DNA of 54,398 nt, filler included, from Stramenopiles sp. TOSAG23-3 (Eukaryota): the NCBI GenBank assembly GCA_900128585.1. It is 4 parts of 4 records of this genome, joined end to end, with 100 filler letters (N's around TTAATTAATTAA, not from the genome) between each part and the next. Parts side by side here need not be neighbours in the genome. Positions count along the whole stretch, not along the records: positions 25,118 to 50,117 come from LT642295.1; 3 more parts are not named here. The stretch is one strand, 5' to 3'. The notes beneath the pieces were generated by a model that was not told the DNA's origin, made no database searches, and saw only the letters and a list, made by a program, of their open reading frames with translations. The translations under genes were made by a program, and so were the position numbers. Positions 1,857 to 52,358 of the stretch are shown here, piece by piece (position 1 is the stretch's first letter; the number at the start of each line of letters is the position of its first letter).

Positions 1857-1864
1857 AGATTAGT

Positions 1865-1915
1865 GTAGACATCAGTTCGCAGTGCATAAAGGAATTTAAA
1901 CCTTAAATGGACAAA
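1865..1915 (+). repeat. Dispersed ~50-bp repeat, copy 1 (copy 2 at 31443-31494)
   Basis: gtagacatcagttcgcagtgcataaaggaatttaaaccttaaatggacaaa here versus gtagagatcagttcgcagtgcatgagggaatgtaaacctctaaaatggacaaa at 31443. Confidence 0.8.
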
Positions 1916-2472: not shown

Positions 2473-5400
2473 TTAATCAAGGGCGCACAGCAGTGCGATA
2501 CCTGCTCGAATCCAAATGCTCTGTTTTCGATCTGATGGAATTCGAATCATCAAGACGAAATTAGTAGAATGTCCTGTTGTGGCCAGTATCCCCCACCTTT
2601 CGCTAGTCCTGTACACCGGACAATTATAGTGCTGGTACTCCGTCAGCTCAGTATTCTTTTTCGGCTCAATCCACATTACTGGGGCAGGAGAAAAGAGAAC
2701 TTTCGGCAGCGGGTCGTGCTCAAAATATTCTTTCCTTGCAATTAGTATTTCTTCTCTACGAACCTTTTCGGAGTTTTGTATCTTTGCAGATTTTGCTCGG
2801 TATTCCATAATGTTAACCGGCCAGCCCAAGGTTACCACTATGAGCGCCAAGTCATCTTTGGAGTGCTTAAAATTATTGCTCACCAAAAAGTTTATTTTTT
2901 GAACCAAGTCTTTCTCTATTTTAGAAGAAAGGATATCCAGATTGTGGACGCACCCCTCTGAGTATTCAATCAAAGCCTTCAGCTCTGCGGCATCGGAGGG
3001 CTCCTTAATTAGTTTTGTCCCTACTTGCTCATACGTAGTGCATATGTACTCCATGAATTTATAATTCTCTGCTGCAATCCTAGAAAATGCCAGTTCTTTT
3101 AACTCTTTCACCCGTTTGTCTACCATAGATTTAAACGGCTGCAAGTCCAATGCGAACAAATCGAAAAACATTATATCTTCCCCCGACAGCATTGCCGAGT
3201 TGCACAACATGTCTAGCTGTTTTGTGATCACAGAGACGTTCTTTAGGCACGCCATTTGTTTTTCCGCCATTTGTGTCCACGCGTCGCTCAGTTTTGCCGC
3301 ATCTTCGCCGGCCGCGTCCAAAAGACTACCGTATTCCGTGCGCACCTTCTGCAGAGCGTTTGTCGCAACTTCAATTCGTTTTTCGTATGTCGTAGTGAAT
3401 AGAACATTAAATCGCTCTAACCCTTTGATGTGTTGGAGGGGTTTTCCTTTGCGCCCATTGACCACACGGTTGATAGTGAACAGGGTCTCCGATACGTCTT
3501 TGTCTAAGCTATCGTCATCGATGATAAGCTCCGAAACCGCCAAATGTTGCGATAGGCGATATTTTCCATTTTGGCGGTTGTGACTTGGTCTGTGTTCGCC
3601 TTGTTTCACTGCACTGATGGAGTCCGCCCTCGGGAACTGCTTGGATGCCTGTACCACGTTGAGGACGGTTTGCTTTAACCTTTCTTCCACTTCGTCGATG
3701 TTTGGAGACACTTGCACTTTTCCTGCTTTTATGACTGCCTGTAGCACAATAACAGATTCGGGCGGTTTCAAAGCGGCAGAAATCAAACTTTCGTTAAAAT
3801 CTTTGCCGTTAGCGTAAGACAAGGCTGCAATAATTATATGACTAACTGACGCACGCCTGTATCTGTGCGTGCTCCCCCTCGGCGAAAAATCGAGCAGTCC
3901 ATCGCCAATGCCAACCCCTTCACCATGTACAATGGCGTCCGATAGTTTAGCCGATTTCACGGACATGTGCTTCCTCACCGCTCCCTGCCTCAACACTTCT
4001 GCGTAGTGGCTTTCGTGGGTGCTGTTGTCAAACTTAAAGAAAAATGCCCCAATCTCAGAAAGCGACATGCTGGCCATTTCACGCAACTGCTTTCCCATCA
4101 AAGTTGCGAATACTTTCATCAGTGTCTGTATGCTCTGCTTCCTTCCATCGTCGTTCGCGCGTTCTGCCTGGCCTTCTGTTTGGTGCTGCACCAATTGCTG
4201 GACGGTGGCATTTCTCTTTCTTGGTACACTTCCTGCAACGCCGTCATCCATCGAAGGGAGTGACGCCATCCATGTTTCGATTTCGTCTGCAGCCAAATCG
4301 TTCTTTTGGGTTTCCAGATTGCTTGTGCGCTTGATGGCTCCATTGATACTCCCCAGCATTGGACTTTTATGCTGGGATGTTTGGTTTGCCGTGGATGTTC
4401 CTGGTAGATTGCCGGGTGCATGCTGGCCAGGCCCGTTGTCAGCACCAGCAACCTCGTCCGTTTCTTCTGACGCAATGGCATGCAACAGCAACTCTTGGGA
4501 GTTCTTGATCCATTTGTCTAGTAGATGTTCTCGCACAGACGATGCCTGGCGGCTCAGATTATTTTCAAAATCGCTGAGGGACATGGGCAACAATTGCCGG
4601 AATTGATATGACGAGATCGTCGTAAATGATGGCTTCCCTTCCACCTCCGCGAACCACAAGCTCTGGGCGGAAAGCATGACCGCGTTGGCAACGTGAGAAA
4701 ACTCTTCCATGAACCTGTACGCATTGACAACATCAAAATTTGAAATCCCCGTGTTTCGGAGCACTTTCCATTCGTTCGAAGTATACCGGGTATCACACCA
4801 CACTGTCGGTGGTGGGTACAAGGCTGTCTTGTCGATGCGCGAATCGTGCGCTACGTCGCTGTCCATCAGCGAATACATGGCAGCACTGAACGCATTTGCG
4901 CTTTGGTACTCATTGCCCAGCTCTTCCACCATGCCTTTCAAAAATTCTTCGTGCGAACGAGAGCCGACCATGCTTAGTGCCTTCGAAAAGAAGCCTTGCA
5001 AGAGTGTGGACTCGGACAGGTTTTGAAGGGGTGTTTGAGACTTTAGGTTCGCTTCGAGCGTTTTACCCACCATCCGATTGAAGTTTTTTGTCGAGGACAC
5101 CACTTGGTCGTTGTAATTTTTGCGAGAGGCCCTTAGGGGCAAATCGGACGTTATCGCAGTCATGGATAGCAAGCGCGGCACGGGTTTCCACATGTCGTCC
5201 GTGGGGATTTCGTCGTCTTTCACAAACAGCCTTGGCGTCGGTTTCGGCGTTAGCAACGCCTTGGAATTCATGAACTTACCCCCCCTGCCTATGTACTTTT
5301 TGCTGCCGTTGTTACTGGGAAACATCGCTTTGTTCATTCCTCTGTTGGATATTTTCCGGTCCCTATCGGGACTTTCGTACACTGGCTTTGGTTGGGGAGT

Positions 5401-25017: not shown

Positions 25018-25117
25018 NNNNNNNNNNNNNNNNNNNNNNNNNNNNNNNNNNNNNNNNNNNNTTAATTAATTAANNNNNNNNNNNNNNNNNNNNNNNNNNN
25101 NNNNNNNNNNNNNNNNN
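25018..25117. other. Artificial contig linker (N44-TTAATTAATTAA-N44)
   Basis: Six-frame stop linker flanked by Ns, identical to 50118-50217 and 52259-52358. Confidence 0.97.
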
Positions 25118-25118
25118 C

Positions 25119-26645
25119 GACGACAATGATGCAAAAATAACGCTTTCGAGTATTAAGTTGAAGATCGCAGAATTCAGTAAAAAACTAAAAACGTTAAAAG
25201 GGCCGGAAAACAAAAAAGCTAGACTGACGCTAAACCGTGCAATTAAAAACATGAAGAAGCATGTGAAGAGAAGAAGACAGCTAAGATCGGGTCGTAAAAT
25301 AATCAGAAGACTAGGATATGATATACGGATACAGAGGAAGATTGCGAAACTAACGGAACAGCTGGAATTGTTGAAAAGGCAGGGCAAGACGAAGAGAGCT
25401 GGAGAAGTAGAGAGCAAACTGAGACAGCTAAAACAGATAGAGCTGAGAAACCCTTGGGAGGAAACGGAAATTTCGATACTGGTTCGAAAAAAAAAATATG
25501 CGAAATTTCGATATAAGGTTCGAAAACAAAAAGTTAAAAAGGACCTCAAGGACTTCCGAGCAAACGTGCAAAAGCAAGAGAAAGTCGTGAAAGTAAGGAA
25601 TGAGGGGATCAAAACCGAATTACAGAAAATGATTCAGAAAAAGATCCAGGGAAAGGGACAGAAAAAAAGGTTTTTATCTAAAAAAAAAAAAAAAGAACAG
25701 CCAATTTTCTTGTTTTTATCTAAGATATGCAAGGAGGGCCATTACTGCAACGACAAGGTGGAAAGACTCAGAAACTCTGAAAATGCAACTGAATTAGAAG
25801 AAGCCACCACTATTGTTGAGGGATTAATGATGAAAGCGGTGGACGCCGCGACCAGTGTGTCACAGGAGGTCAAATTTAAACAACTAATTAAGGGGAAATT
25901 AGTCTTCAAAGAGTCATTGCATAATTTACCCAAACACGTCTTTAAGTGTCAGGCGAAGTGGGAAGCGTTCGAGAAGAAACACTGCAAAGACGTGCTTGAC
26001 AAATGGGCAGGTCACGATACCTACGCAAAGAAGTTTTTTCGCCACGAAGTGAAAAAAACAAAGTTCAATAACAAAATCAGGGGGTGGGGACTTGCTGGAA
26101 GTGGACGGAAGCTGCTGCAAGCAACAGCGGAACATTCTCTTCTCGATGCTTGTTTGTCCATGTATGACGAACTTGACCAGAAACACCCGTCTTGCGTGTG
26201 CCCAGTTTTTCCCAGTGCAGGGACTTGCGGCGCACCACTCTCTTTGGACCTGTATAACAGCCAGGTCGTAAACGGGTTGGAGTTTAAAGGGACAACGGGG
26301 CACGGGAATGGCGACGACGCGGAGGTGGTCATATCAGAGAAGGAAAGGACGGGAAAGCGTTTTAAAGACTTCCACAGATGGGCAACGAAGACCCTTCAAA
26401 GCCAGGTCACCCTTGGTACGGACGGCATGATTCATTGGGAAGGGACCATTCCCAGCAAGATCGCGAAAACGCTTCGAGCCAGCTGCGACAATTTTGAATG
26501 GACAGCCAGGAAGTTCGGTGTCACTGTAAAATTTACTGGAATGACATTCGAGGTCGTCAGCGACGGTGACAGCGTGCAGAATCGACCAGGCGGCCGAAGA
26601 AGTTTGCTAACCACCCGTAACGGTGGCAAGCGATTAGCCTGTTGA
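25119..26645 (+). CDS. 5'-truncated hypothetical protein: Lys/Arg-rich coiled coil followed by a Cys-containing domain
   Basis: The frame is open from the contig edge (DDNDAKITLSSIKLKIAEF...) to TGA at 26645. Contains GRKLLQ and a terminal GGRRSLL...C motif. Confidence 0.65.
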   Translation, partial: DDNDAKITLSSIKLKIAEFSKKLKTLKGPENKKARLTLNRAIKNMKKHVKRRRQLRSGRKIIRRLGYDIRIQRKIAKLTEQLELLKRQGKTKRAGEVESKLRQLKQIELRNPWEETEISILVRKKKYAKFRYKVRKQKVKKDLKDFRANVQKQEKVVKVRNEGIKTELQKMIQKKIQGKGQKKRFLSKKKKKEQPIFLFLSKICKEGHYCNDKVERLRNSENATELEEATTIVEGLMMKAVDAATSVSQEVKFKQLIKGKLVFKESLHNLPKHVFKCQAKWEAFEKKHCKDVLDKWAGHDTYAKKFFRHEVKKTKFNNKIRGWGLAGSGRKLLQATAEHSLLDACLSMYDELDQKHPSCVCPVFPSAGTCGAPLSLDLYNSQVVNGLEFKGTTGHGNGDDAEVVISEKERTGKRFKDFHRWATKTLQSQVTLGTDGMIHWEGTIPSKIAKTLRASCDNFEWTARKFGVTVKFTGMTFEVVSDGDSVQNRPGGRRSLLTTRNGGKRLAC

Positions 26646-29725: not shown

Positions 29726-31380
29726 ATGGCACAAACATACAAACCAACATTAAACATGATCACTCTTAAGATTACATTTGGGGCCGAGACCAGGCGGGCG
29801 TCGATTGACGTAAATACGGCATCCTACGAAGTCTTTCTGGCGTTGCTGACTCGTTTGTTCCAGACCTTGCCAGCGAAAAACCAGTACACCGTAGTGTACG
29901 AAGACGACGACCACGACATGGTGACCGTATCGAGCAACTCGGAACTGCAAGATGCACTGCGGTTGGCCCAGACGGCGGGGTGGACGTCGCTGCGTATGAG
30001 CATTCGCCCGGTATCGGGAGGGGTGGCAGCGAGCGCTCGCCGGCCGGCCGGCGACAACGAGTCCAAAACCAACGGCGCGGACGATGGCGCCCTCCCCCCC
30101 AGGAACAAGGTGCCGCAGGCCTCGAACGGGATGCTCCAGATTATTTTGAACATTTGTGCGACACGCCCCGAGCTGCAAATTCTTCTCCAAAAGCCAAACA
30201 TTCAGGCGGCACTCCAACGGGCCTTTTCGAATCCCGACGTTCTCTCGAACCCCGAGGTAATGGAGACAACGATGAAATCGCTGTGCGAGGCGGACCCCGA
30301 GTTCGCAACCTTCCACGCAAAAGTGACGGACGCCATGAGCGCACAGAACGGCCCGCCGGCAGTGCACGAGGGCATCACCTGCGACCGGTCGGGGATGTCG
30401 CCGATCATTGGGAATCGCTACAAGAAGCAAGGGGCCAACTACGACCTGTGCGAGGCCGAGTTCGCGAAACTTTCCGATTCGGAAAAGAAAGATTACGTAA
30501 AGATTGAACGGCCCGCCAACGGCAGCTCGAGCATGCCATTTCCACCGTTTGGGATGGGCGGCATGCCAATGCCCCCTGGGGGCATGTCGATGGGGGGGCA
30601 CCCAGAGCCAATGCCAAGCGATTTGCGCGTTGTCATCGAAAAAATCTGCGAGAGGCACCCAGATCTAAAGGCCGAATCCCAGAAAGAAAAGATTAAAAAC
30701 TCCTTGGCCACTATTTTTTCTATCGAAAACCCAGACGAGCGGGACGAAGTCATGGAAACCATGCTGCTTGATACGGAGTTCAAAGCCTTCTTTGATAAGG
30801 TGAACGCTAAGATTCAACAGTTCATGAACATGAATGGCCCAGGAGGCGCGATGGGGTTTCCACCAGGCGCGAGCGCGGCGTCTAACCCGATGGGGTTCCC
30901 CCCTGCAGGAATGATGGGGCGGGGGCTTCAAGGAATGAACCCGCAGCAAATGATGCAAATGATGATGCAGGGCGGGGGCGGCCCGCCGTCGGGGGCCATG
31001 GGGTTTCNNNNNNNNNNNNNNNNNNNNNNNNNNNNNNNNNNNNNNNNNNNNNNNNNNNNNNNNNNNAAATGATGCAAATGATGATGCAGGGCGGGGGCGG
31101 CCCGCCGTCGGGGGCCATGGGGTTTCCTCCCGCAGGAATGATGGGCGGGGGACCGCAAGGGATGAACCCACAGCAAATGATGCAAATGATGAGGATGATG
31201 CAGGGTGGGGGCGGCCCGCCGCCATCGGGACCTCCTGCAGGGCCGATGGGAATGGGACCAGGCCAACCTCCCATGGGTGGCATGCCAAACCCAGAAATGA
31301 TGGAGCAAATGATGAGAATGATGCAGCGCGGAAACCAACCCACCGAACAATCTGACGACAGCGATTGGATGTACATGTAA
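29726..31380 (+). CDS. PB1 + degenerate ZZ domain protein (p62/NBR1-like) with a Met/Gly/Pro-rich repeat tail; spans an internal N gap
   Basis: PB1: LKITFGAETRR...YEDDDHDMVTVSSNSELQDAL (OPCA motif). ZZ-like: HEGITCDRSGMSPIIGNRYKKQGANYDLCEAEF. The same repeat continues across gap 31008-31066 to the stop at 31380. Confidence 0.8.
30889..31230 (+). repeat. Coding tandem repeat (~108-bp unit, MGFPPAGMMG...MNPQQMMQMMMQGGGGPPSGA) containing an assembly gap
   Basis: The unit recurs on both sides of Ns 31008-31066; 30948-31007 is identical to 31067-31126. Confidence 0.85.
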
Positions 31381-35401: not shown

Positions 35402-37607
35402 TTACAACTTTGAGGAGGGGTGGGTCGAAAGCTTAGCGCCGTCTTTTAAAAACTCGTAATCGATGAATTTTTCTACCGCTTGGAACATTGGCGGGCTCTC
35501 CACCCACTTTCCATCCTTGTCCACGTTGAGCGCAGATTCCTTGGCTGCCTTGTAGAGAGCCTCGTACACTCGTCCATCCGACCGCCCAAGGGCAGAGTTC
35601 AACACGGTATCGGAAAAATCAAACGAGTCCGTCAGCCCGATGACTTCGTTGCGCAACGAACTGCAGAGCTCGGAGACGGCAGCGTCGACCAGGGTCATCT
35701 CACGGGCGGACAGAAGGCCCACCCAGCCTTCTCCCGAGAGAATGTCTTGAAGGGCAAACATGATTGTCAGCTTGTGCAGCACAAGCTTGCACCCTTCGCT
35801 GTCGGTGTCTGGGATGTCGTTCACACTCTCCACAAACTTGGAAAGCATAAAATACTTTACGTGCGACACAGCTGTTGTGTACAGCAGTCGGGCGTTCCGA
35901 TTCCTCCCCTCGTCCACGCTCAGCTTTTGAACGTTCACACTGTGGTGAAGGGCCTGGTGGGCTTTGTAGCAGCTCACCAAGGTCCGGTACTGAAAGAGTC
36001 GCAAAAAATATTCTCGCGATTCCGCACCACGCCAAAGCAAATCTTCTAAATTTCGAGGCGACGGAGACGGTTTTCCGTCAACGACAGGGTCGAACGACCG
36101 CGAGGAGAGGGGGGCCAAGCACTGGGTCAACCCGGGCAAGGAATCCACGTCTCCCGCAATGGCTTTCTCCACCGAGCGAACAAGAAACCGGGCCGTTTGC
36201 AGGGACAAAATTACATAGTCCCCTTCTGCTGTTGTGTTTGGACCTTTAAAGTCCGCTTCTAACGGTGCTATCCCAGAGCTCATGAGGTACCCGTGCCCGC
36301 CACACGCCCTCCTCAAATCCTCTATCCCATCCGCGGCAAGGACGCAGCCATACGCCTTGAGCCCCGCGGCACTGGCGTGTATCTCAGGCAAGTCCTTGTC
36401 GCCTTCGCTGCTCGATTCTGCAGCCTTACGGCGTTGAAGGAGCCACCTGGCCACAAACTTTATCGCGTACGCGCACGATGTCCACTTCAACACCCGGTAC
36501 AGCTGCACTTGGTAGTCAAGAATTTGGTTCTCCGCCGAGTTAAACCGTGTGGAGTGGGCCGTATTCTTGAACCCTTGGTGACGAAGGGCGCTGTACCTTG
36601 CCGCAATGACGCACGCCTTGGCCAACGAAGCCCCGGCGGTGTTGGTCAGGGCAACTCTTGTTTTCAGCATGGTGATGTAGTGGCTTTTGCCCCCCCCCCC
36701 CGCCTTGCTTCTTCTTCTTCTTGGCCGGCTTTGCATCCATGGAGCCAGGCGGAGGGGATTTTATGTACCGCCCGTCTGGGCTTACGTGCTGCCGACGCTC
36801 CATCAAGTGCCGCCTTGGAATACGCACGTTTCGCATACGCAAGTACCCGATGGTCGCATCGTTGTCGCCAAGCTTCGCTCCGATGTCCCCGACTTCGATG
36901 CCAGGGAGGGCTTTGAAATCTGGGCCTCGCATTTGAACAAGGAAGACGTGGACGCCCATTGGCTTCCCGTTCAGCACCATTTGGGCATACACAGCCGCGT
37001 GGGTAGATGAGTACATCCCTGTGCTCCACCACTTCATCGATTGCAACGTGGGCGTGTTCATCACCCATTCGCCGTCCTGACGTGGGCCAGCGTGCGGGAC
37101 AAACGTTGCCGTGGTCTGCAAACCTCGAACGTTGGAGCCATGGCCCAGCTCGGTCTGCGCATAGCAGCCGATAAACCCGAGCTTCTGTGCCCTTCCCAGC
37201 CACCAGCGCTTCTGCTCGTCGCTGGTCTGACTGCGGAGGGTCGACATGAAGACCCCATAATGCAAACTCAACGGCCCAGTTCTTCCAAACTTCGCAGCGC
37301 TCATGAACGTCATGTCTTGGCCTTTTGGCCTGTACCCAGACTCCAAATGTTTCCAGTGGACGTCCATAAAATGTTTGAGGGCATTTTTTATGCTCTCCTC
37401 GCGCGACACCTCCGCGTGAACTTCGACCTCTGGGTGGTTCTTTCCGTCCAGCACATCATCGTGCGCCCCCTGAATCCACTGTCGCTGGAACGTTGCTTTT
37501 TTCCCACCGTCCAAAATGCCCATCATTTTCGCCACCGAAAACGTCGCCCGCTTCCGCTCCTCGGGAAGCACGTGCGATGTACCACCATTATCCCATGTCT
37601 GTTCCAT
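35402..37607 (-). CDS. ACOX1: Peroxisomal acyl-CoA oxidase (ACOX1-like), with an apparent 1-nt frameshift at 36690-36701
   Basis: IGCYAQTELGHGSNVRGLQTTAT, KWW, GIEVGDIGAK, RRACGGHGY, TAEGD, SALGRSDGRVYE and a C-terminal PTS1 (SKL). The two ORFs fuse if the G12 run is G11. Confidence 0.92.
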
Positions 37608-39386: not shown

Positions 39387-39643
39387 TAATTAGTATACGA
39401 TTAAATGTAGTTATAATTATTACGAGTGTCTATATAGAAAGGAAAGAAAAAACAACAATTCAACCGAGGAAGTATTCTTCATGCCAGATTGTAATAATGA
39501 TCATTCAATGATCACAATGCAATGCCTTTTACCTGAATTGAATTCAACTCACGTCGTCCTTGATTGTCAACACGTTCTTTTCGTTTCGTTTATCTCAGAG
39601 TTCGCATTTTCTCTCCTTCATTCCTCATCACAGAGTGTGAAGG

Positions 39644-40740
39644 ATGACGAACTCCTCCTCGACGACCACCGCGGCGCCCGGCGCGCAACCGCCGCCGGCA
39701 TTGAACATTCTGGTCACCGTCTCGACGTATATTTTGCTGGCGCTCGTTATGTTTGGAATGGCGTGCACCGTTACGCTCGAAGCGATGAAAGAGACGTTTC
39801 GGAACAAAAAGCCATTTTTGATAGCAATTAGCTGTCAGACCATTCTTATGCCTGCCCTGGCGTTTCTCGTCGGCCGAGCCCTGCAGTTGAACGACCTTCA
39901 CAGCATTTGCCTCTTGCTTTTGGGCTGCTGTCCGGGAGGGTCCTTCTCCAACGTTTTGTGCTATTTTGCCAACGGGAACCAGGCGCTGAGCATCGGGCTC
40001 ACGTGCTTTACAAATTTGTGCTGCGTCTTTACGCTCCCACTCTTGCTATGGGTGTGGGGGTCCTCTTTCACGTCCGTCACGATACCGTAGTAAGTTGAAG
40101 TTTCTCTTTTTCTCCCCCCCCTTGCGCCGACTAACCCACTGCTATATTATGTTTTTCCAATGCCGACAGCGGCGACATTTTGGTCAGCTTTTCGCTCGTG
40201 ATTTTCCCCGCCCTATTTGGCATTTGGGTTCGCCACAAAAGCGCAAAGCACGCAAAGTATGGGGAAAGGGTGGGCTCGATCGGCGGGGCCTCCATGGTCC
40301 TTGGCGCCGCAATCAGCGGATTCGTCGCGAACGGCGAGACGTTGGCGGACCGGGACCTCTTGCCAGCGACCACTTTGGTGTCGGTCCTGATCGTTGGGCC
40401 GATGGGTATGCTTTGTTCATTTTTGATTGCGTACTTTTTTCCCATCGGGCCGCGAATGGCGACTCAGGACATCGTCACCATCAGCCTAGAGACCGGGGTC
40501 CAGAACACCGTCCTGGCCCTTGCCATCGTCAACATTAGTTTCTCGGACGTGCTGAGCCCCTTTGAACTCTTCCAGGCGCAGTTCTTTCCCATCTGCTGGG
40601 GGCTCTTTGTTTTGCTGGAAGGGTCCCTCCTCGTCCTTGGGTACAGGCTGTACTTGCGCAAGACGAAAAAGGAGCCGGCCGAGATCGTTCTGGCGGAGAC
40701 GGAGGGGGGATTAGGGGAGACCCAAAACGATAAGTCTTAA
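39644..40740 (+). CDS. Bile acid:sodium symporter (BASS/SLC10) family transporter; exons 39644-40089 and 40170-40740
   Basis: MFGMAC, CQTILMP, GCCPGGSFSN and TISLETGVQN. An 80-nt intron 40090-40169 (GTAAGT...CTAAC...CAG) removes the apparent stop and gives ...VTIPYGDILVS... Confidence 0.92.
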
Positions 40741-40959
40741 ATTTATAAAAAAGTGGAATTCTTTTGATATCTTATCATATGAAATGATAAGAATATAATT
40801 TTTGTGTATCTCATAAAAATTATTATTATTATACCTTTTGTTGGTAAAAAAAACAAAAAATAAATTGATGATAAAAAATTGCACTTAAAAATAACAGCCT
40901 GCCAGTGTTTTGTTTTTAATTAATAAAAATTTAAAAGCATTTTTCATCTTCTGACTTTC

Positions 40960-43900
40960 TCATTCATCTCTCATCGTCTCTCGTCCCCCCCACTTCCCTA
41001 CGTTGACATCGCTGCTTGAATCTGAGGAGTCGTCCTCAACATCACTAAACAATCCGTAACCATGTTCCACGAGCTTCTGAATATCCGGTTTTGTTTTCTT
41101 TTTGTCCCGGTCGCAGTCGAACGTATCCTCGAACGTCGAGAAAGCGGAAGTCGACGCACCATTGCGCGTTGCTTCGGACCACCTTGGCAAGAGCGCCGCT
41201 CTCGGCACTTCGGATTTTACGCCAGCTTCTTTCCGTACAATAGTTTCGTGACGAAAATTGGCGTTAATTGGCTTTTGCTTTCGTTTTCGCTTACTTCTTC
41301 GTAATATTTGGGGCGTTTCGTCATGCATGCTGCTAGCTGCGGGACTCGAGGCATTTATCTTGTACATCGTTTCAACGTCGTCGAACGTTGCAGTATGGTC
41401 TGAACTTGGCCCAGCGACTTGCCCGCCACGTGCATTTCTTTGCAGCAGTTCTGCTTTAGCAACGTGGTATAAAGGCGAGTCTGCAAAACGAAAGTCCGTC
41501 CAACGTTCATTTTCTCTTTCTTCGACAATTTTTACTGCATGGTTACTGGGGTTCTGGGACAATTGGGAAATTAAATCCTTGTAATTTTTTTTTTCCGTGC
41601 TACTCTGCAAACACTCTTTGATTGACCTGAAGCACGAGATCTGCCGTTCAGTGGCCCGTACTTGTCTACCCAAAATAAATGCACATTTGTGAATCAAAGG
41701 GTTCGATTCGCTATTTCCGCCAATAGCGATAGAAGGGTACATATCTGCGAGGAAATCCAACTCCTTCTTCGACCAACTGTCTCTGGCGCCGTAACGCAAG
41801 AGCCCCTTTCGCATTTTTTTGTGTTTCTGTATAATCTCTCTTTTCTCCGGTTCTTTGTCCCGTGTCGTCGGCAGCCTGTTCCCATACACAAACGCTAATT
41901 TTTTCCAGATTGTGCCAGCTAGAGGAAAGTGGTTTCTTAGAAATTCTTCTAACACCTGTTTTTCCCTGTCTAAACTTTCTTTTTCTCTTTGCATACGCAT
42001 ATTGCTTTGGAGTGCGGCCCCTTTTAAATCTGCGTACGCGCCTCTCTTTGTAAGCAACGTCGACGGCTTGTGCCTTGGTGTAGTCAGTAAATGCTGCACA
42101 CACGTTTCCCGCTTCTTGACCGCATCGTTGTCCAGTGTTTTCCTGGTTCTTTTTACAAAGACTGGTTCTGACGTTTTTTTATTTATAGATAGGATTACGT
42201 TACTTGTCTTTGTCAACGCACTGCTGTACAAACCTTCGGCTGCCGTTGTTCGCATGTCGTCCCTTTGCAGCCGCAGCCAATCTTCATGCAATTCGTGCAC
42301 GGCCTTGTTCGCCCACAGCGTTATACGTGGGCAGTGCAACCCTTCAGACACCAAAGTATTCAAGCGTCCAAATATTTGCATCCACATCTCCCCGTGCACC
42401 GTGATGTCTTTATTTTCTGGAATGTCGAAGGCAACGAACATATCCGTTAAGATTCGAGAGTGATCTTCTGTGTGATATGACTGCCCTCTTCCACCCATGG
42501 ACCCTGATATTACCACAACATTTTTTACACGTGCGTTTTTGAGAGCAGTCAAGGTCGCTTTTATATTTTGCCTTTTGCTCAGTTTGTAACCCACAGGGTC
42601 TAGTATCTGTTCGTCCGATGAGGCAATATTAATGAGACTATTTAGAACCTTATCCTTATGCCTGTCGTTGCATACTACGATTTTTTGTCCCTTGTGATTG
42701 AGAGTTACAATTACAAGGTCCTCTCCCCTGTACCTCTCTCTTATTGCTTCTTGCAATTTTTCTTGATTAATGATGGGACTAATTGTTTTGTTTGTTATGA
42801 TCAGCGCTTGTCTGTACTGATCGATGCCGTTGCCCGTTGTACCACGAAGCATGTCGTCCACCATCTCGCATATACCATCGAAATCGATTCGCCATCCCCT
42901 TTTCTCCCGGTTTCCATTTTTTATTTTCGTATTTATGCTTCTTACTCTATCAAGTAAATTGCATTGGTCTGAATAGTGTTCCAGAGTGCGTTTGGATGGC
43001 GATTTGATGGAAATGACCCCCTTACTACTTCGCTGTACTTTGAACCCGTATAAAATGGGCTGGCCTATTGTTTCGCCCACGTCTAGCCGATTTCCATGCT
43101 CTTGCACACGTGCGATCATATTGTCCCAGACATGCGGACTGCACCATTCGGTCTCCAAAATTACTCTCCTGTACGTTTCAGTAATCGTTTCATTCTCCGT
43201 GTTTTCGCGAAATGTTACTATGCTTCGTATTATAAACGGTTGAGAGGGGTGAGCGGACGAGCTATCAATTTGAGCTTTGTAAGCGGCATAGTTCGAAGGC
43301 ACGTCCATAACAATTATGTGAGGCTGTACTCCTTCAATACTGTTCACGCAGAGCGCTCCTGGCGTAGCTGTTATAAACATTACTGCGAAAACGTGGGCCC
43401 CAATCCCGCTTTTTCTGATTGTTTCGACGCTGATCTCCTCCGATTCAGAACTGCTGCGATCCTCTTCGCTACTGGACGATTCTTCTAGCCGTCCATGCCA
43501 GGTTAGGCGCTCCCCTTTGTTCGCATTACGCCCAGGAGATGCGGCAGACATGTCCGCTTCATCCATGATTAAAATAAATCTTTTTTTCTGTTCGATTCCG
43601 TCGTATTTGTGTCCCCTTCCATTCAACTGGTGGAGTATAGGATCTTTTCGTTCTTTGTCTTTGATATAGAATTTGGCGTTTTGGCCGGCTGCGAATCTTG
43701 CCCCTCTCGGGCGTATATCAGATTTAGTAAGTTCATACTCCGTCAAATCCCTGCACCGAAATTTGCATGTGTTGTCGGAAGTGGAAATTATACGCCCTGG
43801 GAAAACTTTCTGAGAGGTCCTAATATGACTGTGAAACATCCTTTTAATATGTGAAGCATTGTTCAGAGCAACAATTGCAAAACGAATGGGCCCTTTCGTC

Positions 43901-46878
43901 GCAAGGTTTATTTTTTTTTCGTCTGTTTTAGTTTTTAACTGATATTTTTTAATATCTTTCTCATCCGGAAACTTAGCTTTCAGCAGTTTTTCTATGTCTC
44001 CATTAAGGACTTCTATTGCTTCGATCATGTCTTTTTTTCCAGCATAGAGCCCTCCCGAGTTCCGCACAAACAGCACTGGAAGGCACCCCAAAACAAAAAT
44101 GGAATCCCATGCGCACTTTGCAGCTTCCGATGATTTCCCTGATTGTGTGAGACCAAACACAATGTTTTCGATGGTGCTGTTCCCTTCGTCCTTTTTTCGT
44201 CGCACTTTCATATTTCGGGAGGCGTATTTGGCATCTTTGATGTGCTTCGCTTTATCCTTTTCGATAGATAATTGCCCCCAGAGCCATTTCACGATCTTGA
44301 TTTCTAGTGGGCTTTTCAGCTGCGACAAGGTATAATCCACTTCTTCTCGGGACAGAGAGAACTGTGACGCAGTCCCAGGGTGCAAGCAGCCTGTAGGGCT
44401 GATGGACGGGAGCGGGTCCGAGACGTGGGCCGGTGGTGGATATATTAACCTCCACTGATCGTCCTCAAATTCCTCCATGTTGACCTCTGTTAACGCATCG
44501 AAGTGATTTTCATCATACATCACATAGCTGCATTCTTGCCGTTCGTCATACAGCCATTCGGAAAACAAGCGCCAACGTTCATTTTCATTTGTTGGATTTT
44601 TATGGTAAAGTGCAATAGGGATATTAAAAAGCACAGAAAGCATTTCTATTTCTGTGTGCTGTGCCCAACCGTCTCTTTTGTTTTTGCCGATCGAAGCGCG
44701 TGCAATAGCAGCATCGACTTCTTGCTGCCCTATCCTATTTACAAGCTGCCAGTAGTCGTTGTTCGATTCGTTCAAATTAGCCAATACTTTCCGCAGGGAA
44801 CATCCTGTGAACTCCGGGTTGCACGTTTTTATGCTCGTTCCCAGCTTGGAAATGGCGCTTTGTCGACGGTCTTTAGATTGATTCATGATATGGTGTGCTA
44901 CTGAAGTGTACCCACAGTCGCCATCGGTTCGGACCAGGAGGCGTAATGCAGAATTTTTCCGCTGCCAACATTTTGAGTCGTCAATGCCAATCTTTAAAAT
45001 TACCCTTATCCTCCTTCCACCGATGCCCCTAGTGACTAAATGCAATGTGTCACCTGCCCCCAAACCCAACTCTGCGGCTGTTGTAGTTTTATCCAAATCT
45101 TTTCCTTGAAAGAGGACGCGGAACTCTCTGTGCAGTTCAGTTTGCTTTCGGGGGGGGATCTGTATTGCATCCATCCATTTACTTCGGATGATGTGGGCAT
45201 TGTCGCTCGGTTCGCATTTTATTATAATGATCGGTTTGTTCATGTACTTTATGCATATGTCAAAAGTGACGTCCCCAGTTAGGTCTATAGTTTCTGGCAC
45301 GTTTTTTTCGGTACAATTGCCTGGTTCATCTTTGGCGGAAACAGTTCGCAAATCGTTATTTGGCTGTGTTTTCCCGACCGCTCGTCGGCTTCGTTGCCGG
45401 GATCGGCGATGACGACGGTTGTGTTTTACAGTGTCTTCCCTGCGGGCGTTTGCCGGAGGGGAAGCGGCCGAGGGTTGTTCTTCTTGGTCAACTGGGCGTT
45501 TGGGAATTTTACGACAAATAATGTACAGAAAAAACACTGCCAAGGTCACTTCCCGGGGCGCAGCAACCTGCAAACCGCGCCATGACAATCGACCACGTAA
45601 CCATGCCCACCCGCTTTCGCTCGGCATGCGGCGAAAAAACTCGAGCGGCCTGCTGGTGCTACGGATCTCGTTCGCCAAGGTGCGAAGCGGGTGCAACACG
45701 TACGTTTCGTAACGAGTCGCCATGTATTTGGTGGCGCCCGGGATGCCCTCATTCAAAAGTGAGTGAAACTGTTCCAACACGTACGTTCGATAAAGCGCTC
45801 CTCCGCGGGATAAGAGAATTCCTACGCTGGATAAGTCTTCCTGGCCCGGGGCATGAGCACTGTGGTTTTGACCACCAATACCCTTTTCCCCGACGTACGT
45901 TTTTCCACCGGCAGCACAAGTTCCCTGGGCGTGCCCTAACTTCCGACATTTAGGGGTTTCTTCTTTTGTGGCTTCAGCTTCAGGCGTAGGGAAAATTTCG
46001 CCAAACTCAAAGTTCTTTAAAGCCCCGTTCGCAGCAGCGTCGTATGACACCTTTGCTCCAGTGGAATCAAGACTCGATGACACGAGGAGCACGAGGAGTG
46101 CACGCCCAATCAGAGACGACACCTTCCCTTTTCGACCGGTCACTCTAGCAGTCTTAATTGCTTTTGTGCTTGTGAAAATTGACCAGGCGGGCTTTGCGCT
46201 AATATGTTGCGCAGGCAAGGCAACTCCCAAGTTCGAACATTTCTTTCGCGAGCCACGTAGAAAATTACATAGCGAGAACCATAGTGTTTTCACCGCACTC
46301 TTCCAAAACCGGAAGGAGGGTGGTTCCTTTCGTTCAAGTTCGCGCCTTTCTGTAGCAACGCGGCCGATTGCCCGCACCCGGAATTCGATGGCAGGGGGAA
46401 GTGGCTCTGCAAGTAGCTCCTGTTCGATCGCAGAGGCATCCTCTGACACAAACTTCGTGCAAATGGCCTCAACCTCTTTCAAGGGGAGGGCGTCCGGGTG
46501 GCCGGCCTTTTCCCCTTTCGTGCGTTCTACGCCGTTGCCATTGGAGTGGCCAACCTTCCGTTCGACCGGGAGAGAGGCAGGCACCTGGGTTAAAACCTTT
46601 ACATGGTTGTCGGCATGACCTGAGATGTAGTAACTCAATGTTTTAACTGTGCCGCTTCGATCTTGTGGGATACGAACAACTCCCGGTGTTGACGGACAGT
46701 GCTGGTCGATGGAAGTGAAGCGGTTGTTTGGATCCGAATAAAGACGAAGTTGCTTCTTCGTCATTATCCTCATCGTCGTTTCTAGGACTCCTTTGTATTT
46801 ACCTGTATGTTGGGATTTACAGCGGGATACCACCAGGGCCCAGGGTTGGGTGGCGCATTGGCGGATGTCGGACGGCAT
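40960..46878 (-). CDS. 1972-aa multidomain protein: hydrophobic segments - ubiquitin-like (GG) - OTU protease - Z1-type SF2 helicase/ATPase - Myb-like repeat
   Basis: Uninterrupted 5.9-kb ORF. Ubl: RVLFQGKDL...GAGDTLHLVTRGIGG. OTU: DGDC...WAQHTEI...HFD. Helicase motifs: GLTQSGKS, IMDEAD, ITATP, SGSMGGRG, MQIFGRL. Myb-like: WSKKELDFL...LGRQVRATERQ. Confidence 0.78.
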   Translation of the reverse strand: MPSDIRQCATQPWALVVSRCKSQHTGKYKGVLETTMRIMTKKQLRLYSDPNNRFTSIDQHCPSTPGVVRIPQDRSGTVKTLSYYISGHADNHVKVLTQVPASLPVERKVGHSNGNGVERTKGEKAGHPDALPLKEVEAICTKFVSEDASAIEQELLAEPLPPAIEFRVRAIGRVATERRELERKEPPSFRFWKSAVKTLWFSLCNFLRGSRKKCSNLGVALPAQHISAKPAWSIFTSTKAIKTARVTGRKGKVSSLIGRALLVLLVSSSLDSTGAKVSYDAAANGALKNFEFGEIFPTPEAEATKEETPKCRKLGHAQGTCAAGGKTYVGEKGIGGQNHSAHAPGQEDLSSVGILLSRGGALYRTYVLEQFHSLLNEGIPGATKYMATRYETYVLHPLRTLANEIRSTSRPLEFFRRMPSESGWAWLRGRLSWRGLQVAAPREVTLAVFFLYIICRKIPKRPVDQEEQPSAASPPANARREDTVKHNRRHRRSRQRSRRAVGKTQPNNDLRTVSAKDEPGNCTEKNVPETIDLTGDVTFDICIKYMNKPIIIIKCEPSDNAHIIRSKWMDAIQIPPRKQTELHREFRVLFQGKDLDKTTTAAELGLGAGDTLHLVTRGIGGRRIRVILKIGIDDSKCWQRKNSALRLLVRTDGDCGYTSVAHHIMNQSKDRRQSAISKLGTSIKTCNPEFTGCSLRKVLANLNESNNDYWQLVNRIGQQEVDAAIARASIGKNKRDGWAQHTEIEMLSVLFNIPIALYHKNPTNENERWRLFSEWLYDERQECSYVMYDENHFDALTEVNMEEFEDDQWRLIYPPPAHVSDPLPSISPTGCLHPGTASQFSLSREEVDYTLSQLKSPLEIKIVKWLWGQLSIEKDKAKHIKDAKYASRNMKVRRKKDEGNSTIENIVFGLTQSGKSSEAAKCAWDSIFVLGCLPVLFVRNSGGLYAGKKDMIEAIEVLNGDIEKLLKAKFPDEKDIKKYQLKTKTDEKKINLATKGPIRFAIVALNNASHIKRMFHSHIRTSQKVFPGRIISTSDNTCKFRCRDLTEYELTKSDIRPRGARFAAGQNAKFYIKDKERKDPILHQLNGRGHKYDGIEQKKRFILIMDEADMSAASPGRNANKGERLTWHGRLEESSSSEEDRSSSESEEISVETIRKSGIGAHVFAVMFITATPGALCVNSIEGVQPHIIVMDVPSNYAAYKAQIDSSSAHPSQPFIIRSIVTFRENTENETITETYRRVILETEWCSPHVWDNMIARVQEHGNRLDVGETIGQPILYGFKVQRSSKGVISIKSPSKRTLEHYSDQCNLLDRVRSINTKIKNGNREKRGWRIDFDGICEMVDDMLRGTTGNGIDQYRQALIITNKTISPIINQEKLQEAIRERYRGEDLVIVTLNHKGQKIVVCNDRHKDKVLNSLINIASSDEQILDPVGYKLSKRQNIKATLTALKNARVKNVVVISGSMGGRGQSYHTEDHSRILTDMFVAFDIPENKDITVHGEMWMQIFGRLNTLVSEGLHCPRITLWANKAVHELHEDWLRLQRDDMRTTAAEGLYSSALTKTSNVILSINKKTSEPVFVKRTRKTLDNDAVKKRETCVQHLLTTPRHKPSTLLTKRGAYADLKGAALQSNMRMQREKESLDREKQVLEEFLRNHFPLAGTIWKKLAFVYGNRLPTTRDKEPEKREIIQKHKKMRKGLLRYGARDSWSKKELDFLADMYPSIAIGGNSESNPLIHKCAFILGRQVRATERQISCFRSIKECLQSSTEKKNYKDLISQLSQNPSNHAVKIVEERENERWTDFRFADSPLYHVAKAELLQRNARGGQVAGPSSDHTATFDDVETMYKINASSPAASSMHDETPQILRRSKRKRKQKPINANFRHETIVRKEAGVKSEVPRAALLPRWSEATRNGASTSAFSTFEDTFDCDRDKKKTKPDIQKLVEHGYGLFSDVEDDSSDSSSDVNVGKWGGRETMRDE

Positions 46879-47199
46879 GGTGTTCGTAGCGCGCGTGGGT
46901 TTTGCGTGATTAAAAATTGTTTGAATGTTTGAATATAACTTTTAAAACTGATTATGTTTGTGTATGTCTATTTTTTTCTTTCTTTCATTTATAACATTTT
47001 TCTTTCTTTCAACTGTCGGTGTGGAGATGGACCAACACTTGGATTGGTGAGATTGTTGTACGATAATAAAAGGCTGACAGAGGAGGGATGAAGTAATTGA
47101 GATTTTGAAGAAATTCAGAATGAGATGTGTTCAGATCTCTTATTCTATGCTGTGTTAGTGTTAAGTGCTATTGTTGAAGATAAAAAACATAAAACATTA

Positions 47200-47385
47200 A
47201 TGCTATTGGGTGTATTTATGAAAACTGTAACAAAAACTTTTTGTAAAATTTACAAACATTTTTGTAAATAACCCTATTTCTATCAAGATGTTTATGCTAT
47301 TGGGTGTATTTATGAAAACTGTAACAAAAACTTTTTTTGTAAAATTTACAAACAATTTTGTAAATAACCCTAATTCTATCTAGAC
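47200..47385 (+). repeat. ~94-bp tandem duplication (2 copies) with imperfect internal inverted repeat
   Basis: atgctattgggtgtatttatgaaaactgtaacaaaaac...gtaaataacccta starts at both 47200 and 47294. Confidence 0.9.
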
Positions 47386-47830
47386 TTTATTAAATTAATG
47401 TTCCAAAAGAAATAAGAAACCAAAAGAAGACTCGTCGCATTAATTAATTATATTTACCGTACGAGGTAAAAAATACCGCAAGAAGAAGGAGAAGAAGATG
47501 AAGAAGAAGTAGAAGAAAGAAGAAAAGAAGAAGAAGTAGAAGAAAGAAGAAGAAGAAGAAGAAGAAGAAAAGGAAGAAGAAAGAAGAAGAAAAATATTAT
47601 CATCATCATCATCCACCATGTTGTCGTCGTCGAGAAAAAAGGAAGAAGTGTTGTTGCATGTTTATAGTAGTATATATATACCCTTGTTGAACCCATTCAT
47701 ATGTATGGAAGAAGATGTGTATCCATTTGAAGAGAAGCTAGAGTGATTTATAGTAGAAATTTGAAGCAACAGGATACGGCAGATTTTGCGCAAACTGTAA
47801 CCACGATCCTCTCTAAAGCAAAACTTGGAT

Positions 47831-50117
47831 ATGATGGATGATGGATGGATGGACAACTATCTAAGTGACCAGTCTGATGACGACTCGGAACCAAACTTTG
47901 CGAGTTCTCAATTCGATGGGACGCACTCTCCTGCGACCTTGCAACTGAAAAGACCACCCCTTAATGCCTCTGTACTAGAAGACCCATCAGGTAAATGCTT
48001 AAAAATCATTCTCACCGCACCGTCAAATAACTCTGTTAGTTTTGAGTATTTGCCACTTGACGTTGAGGGGAAGGGAAAGAAGTGTTCATGGGCTTTCAGG
48101 AAATCTACTGGTGAACAAAGTGCTTCGTGCAACAGTAACCAGAAGTTTTTTCGTACTGCCGGGTTCTACTATTTGCTGTGCCAAGATTCGCTTGGAACCC
48201 CTACAGAGCAGAAAAAATTTCTGTACGAAGGGCATGAGTATACTCACGTAAGAGTGAGTAGAGACGCTGAAGCCAAGAAAAGGAAAGGGGGCCCAAAGCT
48301 GGGGAAGAACACGGGACCCAAGCGCCAGCGCTCCACGGCCAGCCCTGAAGGACGGATTGGAAACCCAGGTCAAAGTTCGAGCAGTGGCGCTGGGCTGGAG
48401 AGAGCGGTTGACGTGTTGGCCACTGATAGTGACACCACTGCAATCGATGGCGAAGGAACGAATTTACCAACGGAATTTTCAATGGGCGGTTATGCTGTTG
48501 AGCTAAAGCTGGTTATGCAACATGAACAGAGGGGTTTTGCAAGCATACCAGATCCAGAAAAATGGAAATCTCTTTACCATAAAAATGATGGTCAGGCAAC
48601 CTCCCTCGTGACAGTCTTTTCAGGACAGACGTTTCAGGATATCAGTGATTTGGAGAAGAAGATATCCTACAAAGATTTAATATCCGATGAAATAACTGAT
48701 TCGATATGCAGAGTACTTCAAGAAGGTAAGGACATTTGCGATCAAATAAGGCGCAGATCATATGACTTCAACATCTGGAATTATAAGCGACATTACAGGA
48801 CACCAAAATACGAACGTTTGTCTGTAAGCTCAATCGAACCGGTATATGATTGGTTCAATATCATATGGCATGACAATAGACGGACAGGGTTCTTGGGCCT
48901 TGCCCCGAAGGGTCCCGGAAAGAAATCCAAAGAAGGGACTTCTTTAAAAACTACTGCCTCTGAATCTACGACTCCAGGTTCGCCACCTTCTGGTACCCCG
49001 TCACGTACTGCTTCCTCACCAGAACGTGAAGGCAGTAAGAGTTTACCTTCTGCTAGTTCTAGTCCAACCGACATGATGGATTCCCTAGCGAATTATGCCT
49101 ACGACGCCTTTCCCCGAAAATCTCTCGTTGAAAAATTTATATACAAGGTATGCAACCAAGATTTTCTTACCCGTCAAAAACTTATTCTTCAGCTTGCGCA
49201 TATGAGGAACAAGCATAGCAACCTAAACGATTCATATGTTGGTTTGGGCGAACTGCAAGATCTAAAGAAGGATGGACCGAAAATATTTTCATACGGACAC
49301 TCCCTGCGGGACTCAAAGTTCCAGTCCTCCTTGCTAATCTTGGCCGCGAAACTTCACGACAGCTACGCCGTTGGAGTCCTATTGAGCCTGGGCTTTGACC
49401 CCATGGTGCAGGATATAAATGGTGACACATTTTTGCATCATGCCATCCGTGATAATTTTGAAGACGTTGTCATGGAGGCGCTTAAACATGGGTCTGCAGA
49501 GAATTTGAAGTGCATTGAAAACAACAAGGGGGAGACATCCCTGTCTTTGTCCCAGTTTTGTTCGTTAAAAATATTCGCGCTACAAGAGGGGGTGTCAGAA
49601 GGTCATGATTGGCATTATGTAGTGCCGAAAACTGCACCCAAAGAGTTCAAGAATGTCCGTGAAATTGTGCTCGAAGCGGCGAAAAGACTTTCGGGGATGT
49701 TAAACTTTGCATCCATAGCGTTTAAGAATGACCATGAAATTGTGCTCGAAGCTGTGAAAAAGTATGGGTTGGCGTTACAATATGTACCCCAGGCGTTGAA
49801 AAAGGACCGAAAATTTGTGCTCGAAGCGGTGAAAAGTGATGGGTTGGCGTTAGAAATTGTTTTCGAAGCGGTGAAACCGTATGGGTTCGCGTTAAAATAT
49901 ACATCCGAAAAATTTCAGAAAGACCGTAAAATTGTGTTCGAAGCGGTGAAACGTTATGCGGTGGCGTTACAATATGCATCCGAAGAGTTGAAGAAAGACC
50001 GTGAAATTGTGTTCAAAGCGGTGAAACAGTATGGGTTGGCGTTACAATATGCATCCGAAGAGTTGAAGAAAGACCGTGAAATTGTGTTCGAAGCGGTGCA
50101 ACGTGATGGGCGTGCGT
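47831..50117 (+). CDS. Ankyrin-repeat + DUF4116-repeat protein, 3'-truncated at contig end
   Basis: Ankyrin-like LLILAAK...QDINGDTFLHHAI...NNKGETSL (~49330-49550). Tandem ~25-aa ALQYASEELKKDREIVFEAVK units typical of DUF4116 (~49630-50117). Confidence 0.8.
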
Positions 50118-50217
50118 NNNNNNNNNNNNNNNNNNNNNNNNNNNNNNNNNNNNNNNNNNNNTTAATTAATTAANNNNNNNNNNNNNNNNNNNNNNNNNNN
50201 NNNNNNNNNNNNNNNNN
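50118..50217. other. Artificial contig linker
   Basis: N44-TTAATTAATTAA-N44. Confidence 0.97.
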
Positions 50218-52258: not shown

Positions 52259-52358
52259 NNNNNNNNNNNNNNNNNNNNNNNNNNNNNNNNNNNNNNNNNN
52301 NNTTAATTAATTAANNNNNNNNNNNNNNNNNNNNNNNNNNNNNNNNNNNNNNNNNNNN
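52259..52358. other. Artificial contig linker
   Basis: N44-TTAATTAATTAA-N44. Confidence 0.97.

Follow-up and report, generated by a model that had tools for sequence, protein, structure and literature searches.

We analysed a 54,398-nucleotide stretch of DNA (the window) from Stramenopiles sp. TOSAG23-3, assembly GCA_900128585.1, which carries on its minus strand, at 40960..46878 with the stop included, one open reading frame (ORF) of 1972 codons (P0001). From the N- to the C-terminus, the encoded protein contains a ubiquitin-like domain (Ubl) ending in Gly-Gly, a probable OTU cysteine-protease domain recognised by a sub-threshold Pfam match, and a superfamily 2 (SF2) helicase-like ATPase core. 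A preliminary description of the locus had proposed a single intronless ORF of 1972 amino acids (aa) with these domains in this order, and both the ORF and the domain order proved to be real. The ORF is a genuine gene with a single exon, from a marine protist. The interpretation that we favour, and to which we give about an even chance, is that its product couples a DNA motor to a ubiquitin module, is used by the host and probably serves a conflict-related role. The ubiquitin fold, the OTU domain and the SF2 motor are known kinds; the family to which the motor belongs, its kinship and the architecture of the protein are apparently undescribed. Within the literature searched, three points are new: a eukaryotic family that the Pfam, PADLOC and PHROGs models do not see and whose nearest detectable kin are the motors of restriction enzymes; the repeated, apparently independent fusion of this family to deubiquitinases of two unrelated folds; and a Gly-Gly-ended Ubl as a built-in substrate immediately before a probable protease.

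The motor core is a predicted two-RecA SF2 ATPase

The motor core spans aa 880-1600 (42079..44241, minus strand, as for all features of the ORF given below). Read from the sequence, it carries the Walker A motif GLTQSGKS at aa 909 (44131-44154), DEAD at aa 1106 (43552-43563), TATP at aa 1170 (43360-43371, with TAT at 43363-43371), GGRG at aa 1462 (42484-42495, with GRG at 42484-42492) and QIFGR at aa 1501 (42364-42378). When recomputed, all motif coordinates lay within a few bases of those first proposed. Motifs I, II, III, V and VI are present in order and are kept across an alignment of 77 homologues, whose conserved blocks are Q..K(S/T), DExD, TATP, IGGRG, LTDM, HGE..Q..GRL and LW. No meaningful match to aa 880-1600 was found in Pfam, PADLOC or PHROGs, and the family profile gave 0 matches at E<=10 when compared with the PDB by sequence.

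AlphaFold2 modelling of the core with the 77-sequence alignment returned two tandem RecA-like domains with a predicted local distance difference test score (pLDDT) of 88.2 and a predicted template modelling score (pTM) of 0.87; from the single sequence, the pLDDT was only 32.5. The model matched 164 PDB chains at E<=0.001 in Foldseek, and the rows listed were SF2 enzymes (LGP2/MDA5/RIG-I, FANCM, Hef, DHX36, UvrB and SNF2h), with a best E of 1.7e-7 and a TM score of ~0.3. With VIA-align, flavivirus NS3, RIG-I-like proteins, Cas-associated DinG, FANCM and Mfd were tied at Z 15-16.5 over 275-415 aligned residues. Because the model is confident and its fold matches are to SF2 enzymes, structure prediction shows aa 880-1600 to be a two-RecA SF2 ATPase, in agreement with the preliminary description. 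Among the solved-structure matches, no SF2 subfamily stands out. RIG-I-like proteins, FANCM/Hef and NS3 match the predicted core best (VIA Z 15.7-16.5), but their identity to it is only 8-15% and the Z values of many unrelated SF2 groups lie less than 1 unit apart. Unlike RIG-I-like proteins and FANCM/Hef, the ORF protein has no CARD, C-terminal domain (CTD) or nuclease domain, and the likeness is one of general SF2 fold only. The N-terminal half of the core (N-core) contains a beta-rich insertion at aa 1018-1078 (43645..43827), with its strands at model residues 139-199, where alignment coverage falls to 11-20 of 76 sequences.

Sequence profiles place the family beside prokaryotic DEAD-Z1 motors

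The preliminary description had called the motor Z1-type and not DEAD-box. According to PMC5861437, DEAD-Z1 motors are marked by a Walker A motif in which Gln replaces Gly, a motif VI of the short QxxR form, an H/H motif and a loop that follows motif II, and in CglI a DEAD-Z1 motor drives translocation along double-stranded DNA (dsDNA). We compared the family with 12 Z1 proteins from bacterial genomes (1 from 5 genomes and 11 from 9 of 301 genomes of one phylum) and with 34 control proteins of the same genomes (10 SNF2, 12 ResIII and 12 DEAD-family proteins). The Z1 consensus reads G.VQSGKT ... IDDEAD ... YTATPxAN ... PxxYxG ... RGLTLEGL..SY ... LLQMGRWFGYR. The family and the DEAD-Z1 proteins share an SF2 two-RecA motor in which DExD, TATPxA and PxxYxG follow in the same order, and both have the Gln-containing Walker A motif GxxQSGK(S/T), which is GxxQSGKT in all 12 of the 12 fetched Z1 proteins.

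In hhalign profile-profile comparisons, the family alignment matched the Z1 set with a probability of 85.9% (E 5.3e-6), versus 0.1% for the SNF2 set, 0.7% for the ResIII set, 0.1% for the DEAD set and 0.2% for a reversed Z1 alignment used as a control. Z1 was the only one of the four tested SF2 groups to give a significant match. The Pfam models DEAD and Helicase_C, which describe eukaryotic DEAD-box proteins, did not match either. Between the reference sets themselves, Z1 matched ResIII, DEAD and SNF2 at 3.2%, 0.6% and 0.1%, and ResIII matched SNF2 and DEAD at 98% and 97%. At a low maximum-accuracy (MAC) threshold, the family and Z1 alignments placed all motifs in register over 502 columns. 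When single sequences were compared by hhalign, 7 of the 12 Z1 proteins outscored the best of the 34 controls; searched with the family hidden Markov model (HMM), 9 Z1 proteins ranked above all 34 controls, but with only 1-12 bits. The N-core alone matched Z1 at 90.5% (E 1.3e-6).

Several results weigh against a closer relationship. The C-terminal half of the core (C-core), the Z1 domain proper, matched Z1 at a probability of only 1% (E 0.054), still the best of the four groups. Pfam Z1 (PF10593) had no match on aa 880-1600 at E<=10 and none in the family members scanned (8, 34, 8, 6 and 6 proteins, at E<=0.01 or 0.1), and 5 genomes with Z1 genes gave the family profile no match at E<=1. Motif VI is QxxGR in the family, with the Arg at +4, versus QMGR in the Z1 consensus, with the Arg at +3 as in the QxxR hallmark. 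The H/H motif has no counterpart, since the 'MLxH' block of Z1 faces 'LIITNKT' of the ORF protein, which has no His (alignment by hhalign, motif placement our own reading). The setting differs as well: DEAD-Z1 proteins work with a nuclease and a methylase in a restriction operon, whereas the ORF is a lone eukaryotic gene without such partners, and its product carries the Ubl-OTU part and long extra regions. Because several Z1-defining features fail, we judge from the sequence comparisons that the family is a distant sister of the DEAD-Z1 motors of CglI/NgoAVII-type restriction enzymes and not a member. The proposed Z1 assignment therefore stands at the profile level and at Walker A, and fails at the C-core, Pfam Z1 and motif VI. 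Among the bacterial genomes searched, one (G300) has three Z1-domain genes, two of them ~10 kb apart on one contig (C9; L127, L135).

A Gly-Gly-ended ubiquitin-like domain precedes a probable OTU domain

The Ubl occupies aa 538-621 (45016..45267). A phmmer search of the PDB aligned aa 541-621 to residues 3-76 of ubiquitin, with E ~2e-4 where the chain is a single ubiquitin; the much lower E-values against poly-ubiquitin chains reflect repeated matches only. Pfam ubiquitin matched the C-terminal half of the domain at E 8.5e-4 (19.5 bits, under the 25.4 cut-off) and was found at E 2e-4 in the relatives P0002 and P0083. The domain ends in LHLVTRGIGG, in register with the C-terminus of ubiquitin, with RR following directly, and its Gly-Gly is kept in 3 of 3 relatives. 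Together, these results show that a Ubl with a C-terminal Gly-Gly lies upstream of the motor. The Crinkler-type header once suggested for it is not supported: the Ubl is internal and matches ubiquitin, and no Crinkler family was found in Pfam at E<=1. The Ubl-OTU module was found only in the ORF, its own gene model and its own cluster (P0002); a search with the module itself added one polyubiquitin-like protein.

The probable OTU domain lies at aa 650-793 (44500..44931), where Pfam PF02338 matched over model positions 1-128 of 128 at E 4.9e-4 (21.0 bits). The catalytic motifs of OTU proteases take the forms DGxC and H[FY]D. In the ORF protein, DGDC is found at aa 652-655 (44914-44925, with the Cys655 codon at 44914-44916) and HFD at aa 792-794 (44497-44505, with the His792 codon at 44503-44505), at opposite ends of the match. 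The nearest ESM Atlas clusters were of the OTU1/YOD1 and VCPIP1 types (0.86, 0.77 and 0.75), which we treat as leads only, and OTU sequences numbered 0 in 401 bacterial genomes searched. A predicted complex of the OTU part (aa 626-810) with the Ubl (aa 531-621) scored 0.21 with a mark of 0.34 and was not used as evidence.

Other results weigh against an active OTU protease or against the assignment itself. The Pfam score is under the gathering cut-off (21.0 vs 23.3 bits), the same model was absent from the relatives P0002 and P0083 at E<=0.1, and the OTU part gave only chance-level matches to the PDB by sequence. Furthermore, the catalytic Cys (TGT) is replaced by Ser (AGC) in 3 of 3 relatives (P0002, P0083 and P0081), which form one lineage and are ~85% identical in the OTU region. 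Since the Cys is Ser in this sister lineage, OTU catalysis and self-cleavage may be dispensable. We therefore regard aa 650-793 as a probable OTU cysteine-protease domain whose catalysis in the ORF protein is uncertain.

Two groups of OTU proteins resemble this arrangement. The OTU1/YOD1 and VCPIP1-type deubiquitinases carry a UBX-like domain and an OTU domain, and so have, like the ORF protein, a ubiquitin-fold domain directly N-terminal to the OTU. Unlike theirs, the ubiquitin-fold domain of the ORF protein is ubiquitin-like, with a Gly-Gly end and a possibly cleavable junction, and its OTU is followed by a 720-residue motor. Viral OTU proteases (tymovirus PRO, arterivirus PLP2 and the vOTU of pPolB) lie, as here, inside a large multidomain replication-type protein. 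Those of tymoviruses and arteriviruses process polyproteins and deubiquitinate, and in tymoviruses the self-cleaving OTU is next to a helicase. For protein-primed polymerases, an internal OTU has been proposed (PMC11071308) to self-process the protein, which is a precedent for self-cleavage. The viral systems, however, have SF1 helicases or viral polymerases where the ORF protein has an SF2 motor, and they lack a Ubl-Gly-Gly substrate in the same chain; no sequence relationship between the ORF protein and viral OTU proteases emerged. The term polyprotein, used for the ORF product in the preliminary description, is best taken as a hypothesis.

The motor recurs with ubiquitin and chromatin modules in a eukaryotic family

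A full HMMER scan of 1.84 billion representatives yielded a family of 77 representatives (E<=1e-3), of which 10 reach <=1e-30. These come from JGI, ENA and Logan metagenome assemblies, MMETSP transcriptomes (P0006, P0016) and a TARA sequence, and a gene model of Bigelowiella natans (P0102) also belongs to the family. The MMETSP members and the B. natans gene model indicate that the family is eukaryotic and transcribed in cultured protists. A profile scan of genome_contigs found no relatives, and a metagenome scan found 3 loci. Through this analysis, ~77 orphan clusters of marine protist proteins gain a name and a model.

Family members differ in the domains that accompany the motor. P0070 has a UCH/USP domain at aa 183-509 (45.6 bits) with Walker A at 676, and P0039 has one at aa 210-464 (28.5 bits) with Walker A at 642, both above the Pfam cut-off. 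A DnaJ domain in P0065 is also above the cut-off, RING matches in P0012 and P0101 are weak and under it, and RAMA matches in P0003 and P0087 are weak. In the metagenome family member L003 (18-2597), a bromodomain lies within the helicase region (Pfam, 65.8 bits). In a tree of 41 cores (FastTree, midpoint-rooted, topology without support values), the UCH-bearing P0070 and P0039 fall in a clade far from that of the ORF. As this distant clade has a USP/UCH deubiquitinase at the same N-terminal position, the pairing of Ubl-OTU with the motor appears to be functional. The family has apparently been fused to deubiquitinases of two unrelated folds, repeatedly and independently, and the pairing of the motor with ubiquitin and chromatin modules is a recurring theme and no accident of this ORF.

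Two of the metagenome loci show further features. The helicase match of L003 runs on into the next ORF, suggesting a frameshift or an intron. In L002, a 1289-aa family member (416-4285) lies on the same strand and 30 bp downstream of an ORF (2-385) with an ephrin-receptor-like Cys-rich repeat.

The ORF is one continuous gene under purifying selection

If the long ORF were an assembly or read-through fusion, or a decaying pseudogene, its product would not be one protein and the architecture would be an artefact. We consider this very improbable. The metagenome contig L001 (6168 bp) has 84% DNA identity to the ORF over 46159-41005, and its 1711-aa ORF is open and collinear with the frame from ~aa 240 to the stop; P0002 is collinear over aa 266-1972 with 78% identity. 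The ratio of non-synonymous to synonymous substitution rates (dN/dS), computed against the 84%-identical copy L001, was 0.35 overall, with 0.18 and 0.23 in the RecA cores, 0.18-0.35 in the helicase parts, 0.29 in the OTU, 0.35 in the Ubl and 0.50 in the tail. It was 0.52 in aa 266-440 and 1.03 in aa 441-530, and no folded segment reached 1.

Contigs of an independent sample (X3), diverged by a few percent, tile 39400-46309 collinearly with the same downstream flank, domain junctions included, and bridge the Ubl, OTU and helicase parts (44019-45472), which speaks against the earlier concern that the ORF could be a chimeric join. None of these contigs covers 46310-47657, and no conclusion is drawn from this. 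Contigs from RNA libraries agree letter for letter with the sequence at 43677-43854, 44035-44270 and 45954-46115, and a further match, at 44461-44699, has 1 mismatch. A relative is represented by a polyA-library contig that runs unspliced over 44199-44680, across a predicted splice acceptor at 44490. No splice joints were reported among the contigs compared over the locus. The RNA-library contigs are assembled, so that they speak for presence and continuity and are no proof of transcription, a point that counts against the favoured interpretation.

The artefact explanation draws on three observations. The EukProt gene model P0007 is limited to aa 1-16, 95-428 and 797-968, with introns at 44491-45594 and 46597-46830; it splices out aa 17-94 and 429-796, and hence the Ubl-OTU part, contrary to the architecture described here. 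Since RNA-library contigs run through a predicted splice site, this model is probably wrong. The source assembly of the contig is a fragmented draft. Finally, the in-frame N-terminal extension, aa 1-240 (46159..46878), is not conserved in L001: blastn homology to L001 starts at 46159, and the region upstream of the L001 ORF has stops in all frames. As aa 1-240 have no counterpart there and the upstream region of L001 is closed, the true start codon of the ORF is uncertain.

Host gene, passenger or housekeeping factor

The relative synonymous codon usage (RSCU) of the ORF is atypical. Its correlation with pooled host ORFs was 0.20-0.36 for the five segments of the ORF, compared to 0.61-0.90 for 12 of 14 other long ORFs, and GC content at third codon positions (GC3) was 0.46-0.55, compared to 0.56-0.76. 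This atypical usage favours a non-core origin. The two exceptions are the adjacent DUF4116-ankyrin ORF at 47831-50117 (r 0.06, GC3 0.46) and an ORF at 25251-26645 (r 0.16, GC3 0.51). Because the DUF4116-ankyrin ORF shares the atypical codon usage, the contig may, from ~40.9 kb to its end, form a block of foreign composition.

Such a composition is what a passenger gene could show. The gene might belong, as cargo or core, to an element that is selfish or derived from a virus, for instance an undescribed transposon or a giant-virus gene that became endogenous, and the host would not use it; the motor would then serve the replication or mobility of the element, and the Ubl-OTU part would process a polyprotein or blunt host ubiquitin signalling. 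Besides codon usage, the intronless state of the ORF fits this explanation, as the neighbouring acyl-CoA oxidase and SBF transporter genes are split across ORFs. So does the homology to L001, which is confined to 46159-41005, within the ORF, with unaligned flanks. The nearest ESM Atlas clusters to the motor are Nucleocytoviricota hypothetical proteins (0.95), and in BFVD the fold is best matched by an uncharacterised protein of a Heterosigma akashiwo virus (E 2.2e-10, TM 0.40), with many giant-virus helicases ranking next. However, the 25-kb contig has no integrase, transposase or capsid genes and its other genes are ordinary host genes, no terminal repeats were found around the ORF beyond low-complexity matches, and the window holds no second copy. 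In the independent sample, the gene is followed by the same downstream flank; no relatives turned up in three scans of IMG/VR, and a family member is present in a nuclear gene model of B. natans. Taken together, we rate a passenger as unlikely, though with appreciable weight. The preliminary description had suggested a laterally acquired effector or the core of a selfish element; atypical codon usage agrees with this, whereas the missing repeats, integrase and transposase and the presence of the family in other eukaryotes do not. Its analogy with Helitrons finds no support, the motor being SF2 and no Rep domain having been found.

Two candidate signs of mobility were rejected. Inverted repeats around the ORF, considered as element termini, are AAG/CTT low-complexity sequence. 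An empty site at 39456/47106 would, if true, indicate mobility; the joint 39456->47106 in metagenome contig X4, which skips the ORF, rests on 21 letters of low-complexity, A/T-rich sequence.

A further explanation is that the gene encodes a factor for chromatin or DNA repair that is inherited vertically, restricted to its lineage and without a conflict role, namely a translocase deubiquitinating chromatin or stalled complexes by a logic comparable to other pairings of remodellers with ubiquitin enzymes. It would account for the purifying selection on all folded parts, the conserved run resembling a nuclear localisation signal (NLS), the ordinary chromosomal neighbours, the family transcripts in cultured protists (MMETSP) and the family members with a bromodomain or a weak, sub-cut-off RING. 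We nevertheless think it unlikely. The family is small and patchy (77 representatives in 1.84 billion), its accessory domains vary from clade to clade, and the catalytic Cys is lost between close relatives; an overall dN/dS of 0.35 is high for a core factor, with ~1.0 in aa 441-530, and codon usage is atypical.

A proposed mechanism

In the host-used interpretation that we favour, the protein would be a large translocase, driven by ATP and probably nuclear, that moves on nucleic acid and is fused to a ubiquitin-handling module. A nuclear location is suggested by the conservation of the basic NLS-like run RRSKRKRKQK at aa 1860-1869 (41272..41301), which relatives keep as YRRKRKRKQK. The motor may move along dsDNA or chromatin using ATP, by analogy with CglI. 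DNA is inferred over RNA as its substrate; the best-matching structures include the RNA helicases NS3 and RIG-I. It also counts against the favoured interpretation that no nuclease or DNA-recognition domain was identified in the ORF protein. The OTU domain or a host deubiquitinase might cut after the Gly-Gly, and the cut would free the OTU-motor-NLS part from the fast-evolving N-terminal part. On DNA, the OTU could remove ubiquitin from, or bind ubiquitin on, the proteins that the motor meets. As to the role of the protein, our best guess is genome defence or conflict, for example against viral or transposon DNA, with chromatin or DNA-repair maintenance second. If the motor acts on DNA, the protein would offer a testable case of prokaryotic defence hardware reused with eukaryotic ubiquitin signalling.

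A more far-reaching version, which we hold to be quite unlikely, is that these proteins are unrecognised eukaryotic nuclear motors, descended from or sister to DEAD-Z1, in which the nuclease partner has been replaced by ubiquitin-system modules, giving a restriction-like immunity that acts through ubiquitin. The replacement would have occurred independently in different clades, by OTU here, by USP elsewhere and possibly by RING. Patrolling DNA, such proteins would not cut but would add a ubiquitin mark to foreign complexes of DNA and protein, for example the chromatin of giant viruses or transposons, or take it off, and the built-in Ubl-Gly-Gly would be a self-cleaved switch or a donated tag. 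The literature searched, with most subscription journals outside its scope, describes no eukaryotic Z1-like helicase and no Ubl-OTU-helicase protein, in line with the preliminary description, which knew of no protein with this architecture.

Other regions of the ORF and of the window

Between the N-terminal extension and the Ubl, aa 241-530 (45289..46158) are conserved and fast-evolving by dN/dS and contain an Arg-rich stretch and two short hydrophobic runs, at 46069-46113 and 45505-45549. The runs are only 11-15 residues long, and no 19-residue window in aa 1-530 reaches a Kyte-Doolittle value of 1.6; with hydropathy under the threshold for a membrane span, a transmembrane reading was not confirmed. 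Near the C-terminus, aa 1702-1748 (41635..41775) had been read as a Myb/SANT-like repeat. This stretch is conserved in relatives (dN/dS 0.34), and the Myb/SANT reading was not upheld: Pfam gave no match at E<=10 except two unrelated weak ones, and a phmmer search of the PDB with the C-terminus gave only a KH protein at E 0.27.

The window consists of four contigs joined artificially via N44-TTAATTAATTAA-N44 linkers at 25018-25117, 50118-50217 and 52259-52358, and because the joins are artificial, gene order across them carries no meaning. A further gap lies at 31008-31066. The contig bearing the ORF spans 25118-50117, and its neighbours there are SBF transporter, acyl-CoA oxidase, PB1-ZZ and DUF4116 genes. 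On this and the other contigs, the window encodes a dynein heavy chain, ORC3, a DDB1/CPSF-A-like protein, the acyl-CoA oxidase, a purple acid phosphatase-like protein, the PB1-ZZ protein, a seven-transmembrane (7TM) receptor and the DUF4116-ankyrin protein, with the SBF transporter divided over several ORFs. No tRNA genes or Rfam matches were found in the window. The 950-bp region upstream of the ORF contains a 96-bp tandem repeat at 47200-47425 (~2 copies, 94% alike) and a long AAG microsatellite at 47480-47591. The acyl-CoA oxidase is encoded by two overlapping ORFs on the minus strand in different frames (35402-36736 and 36540-37607), and this split between frames suggests an intron or a frameshift in the gene.

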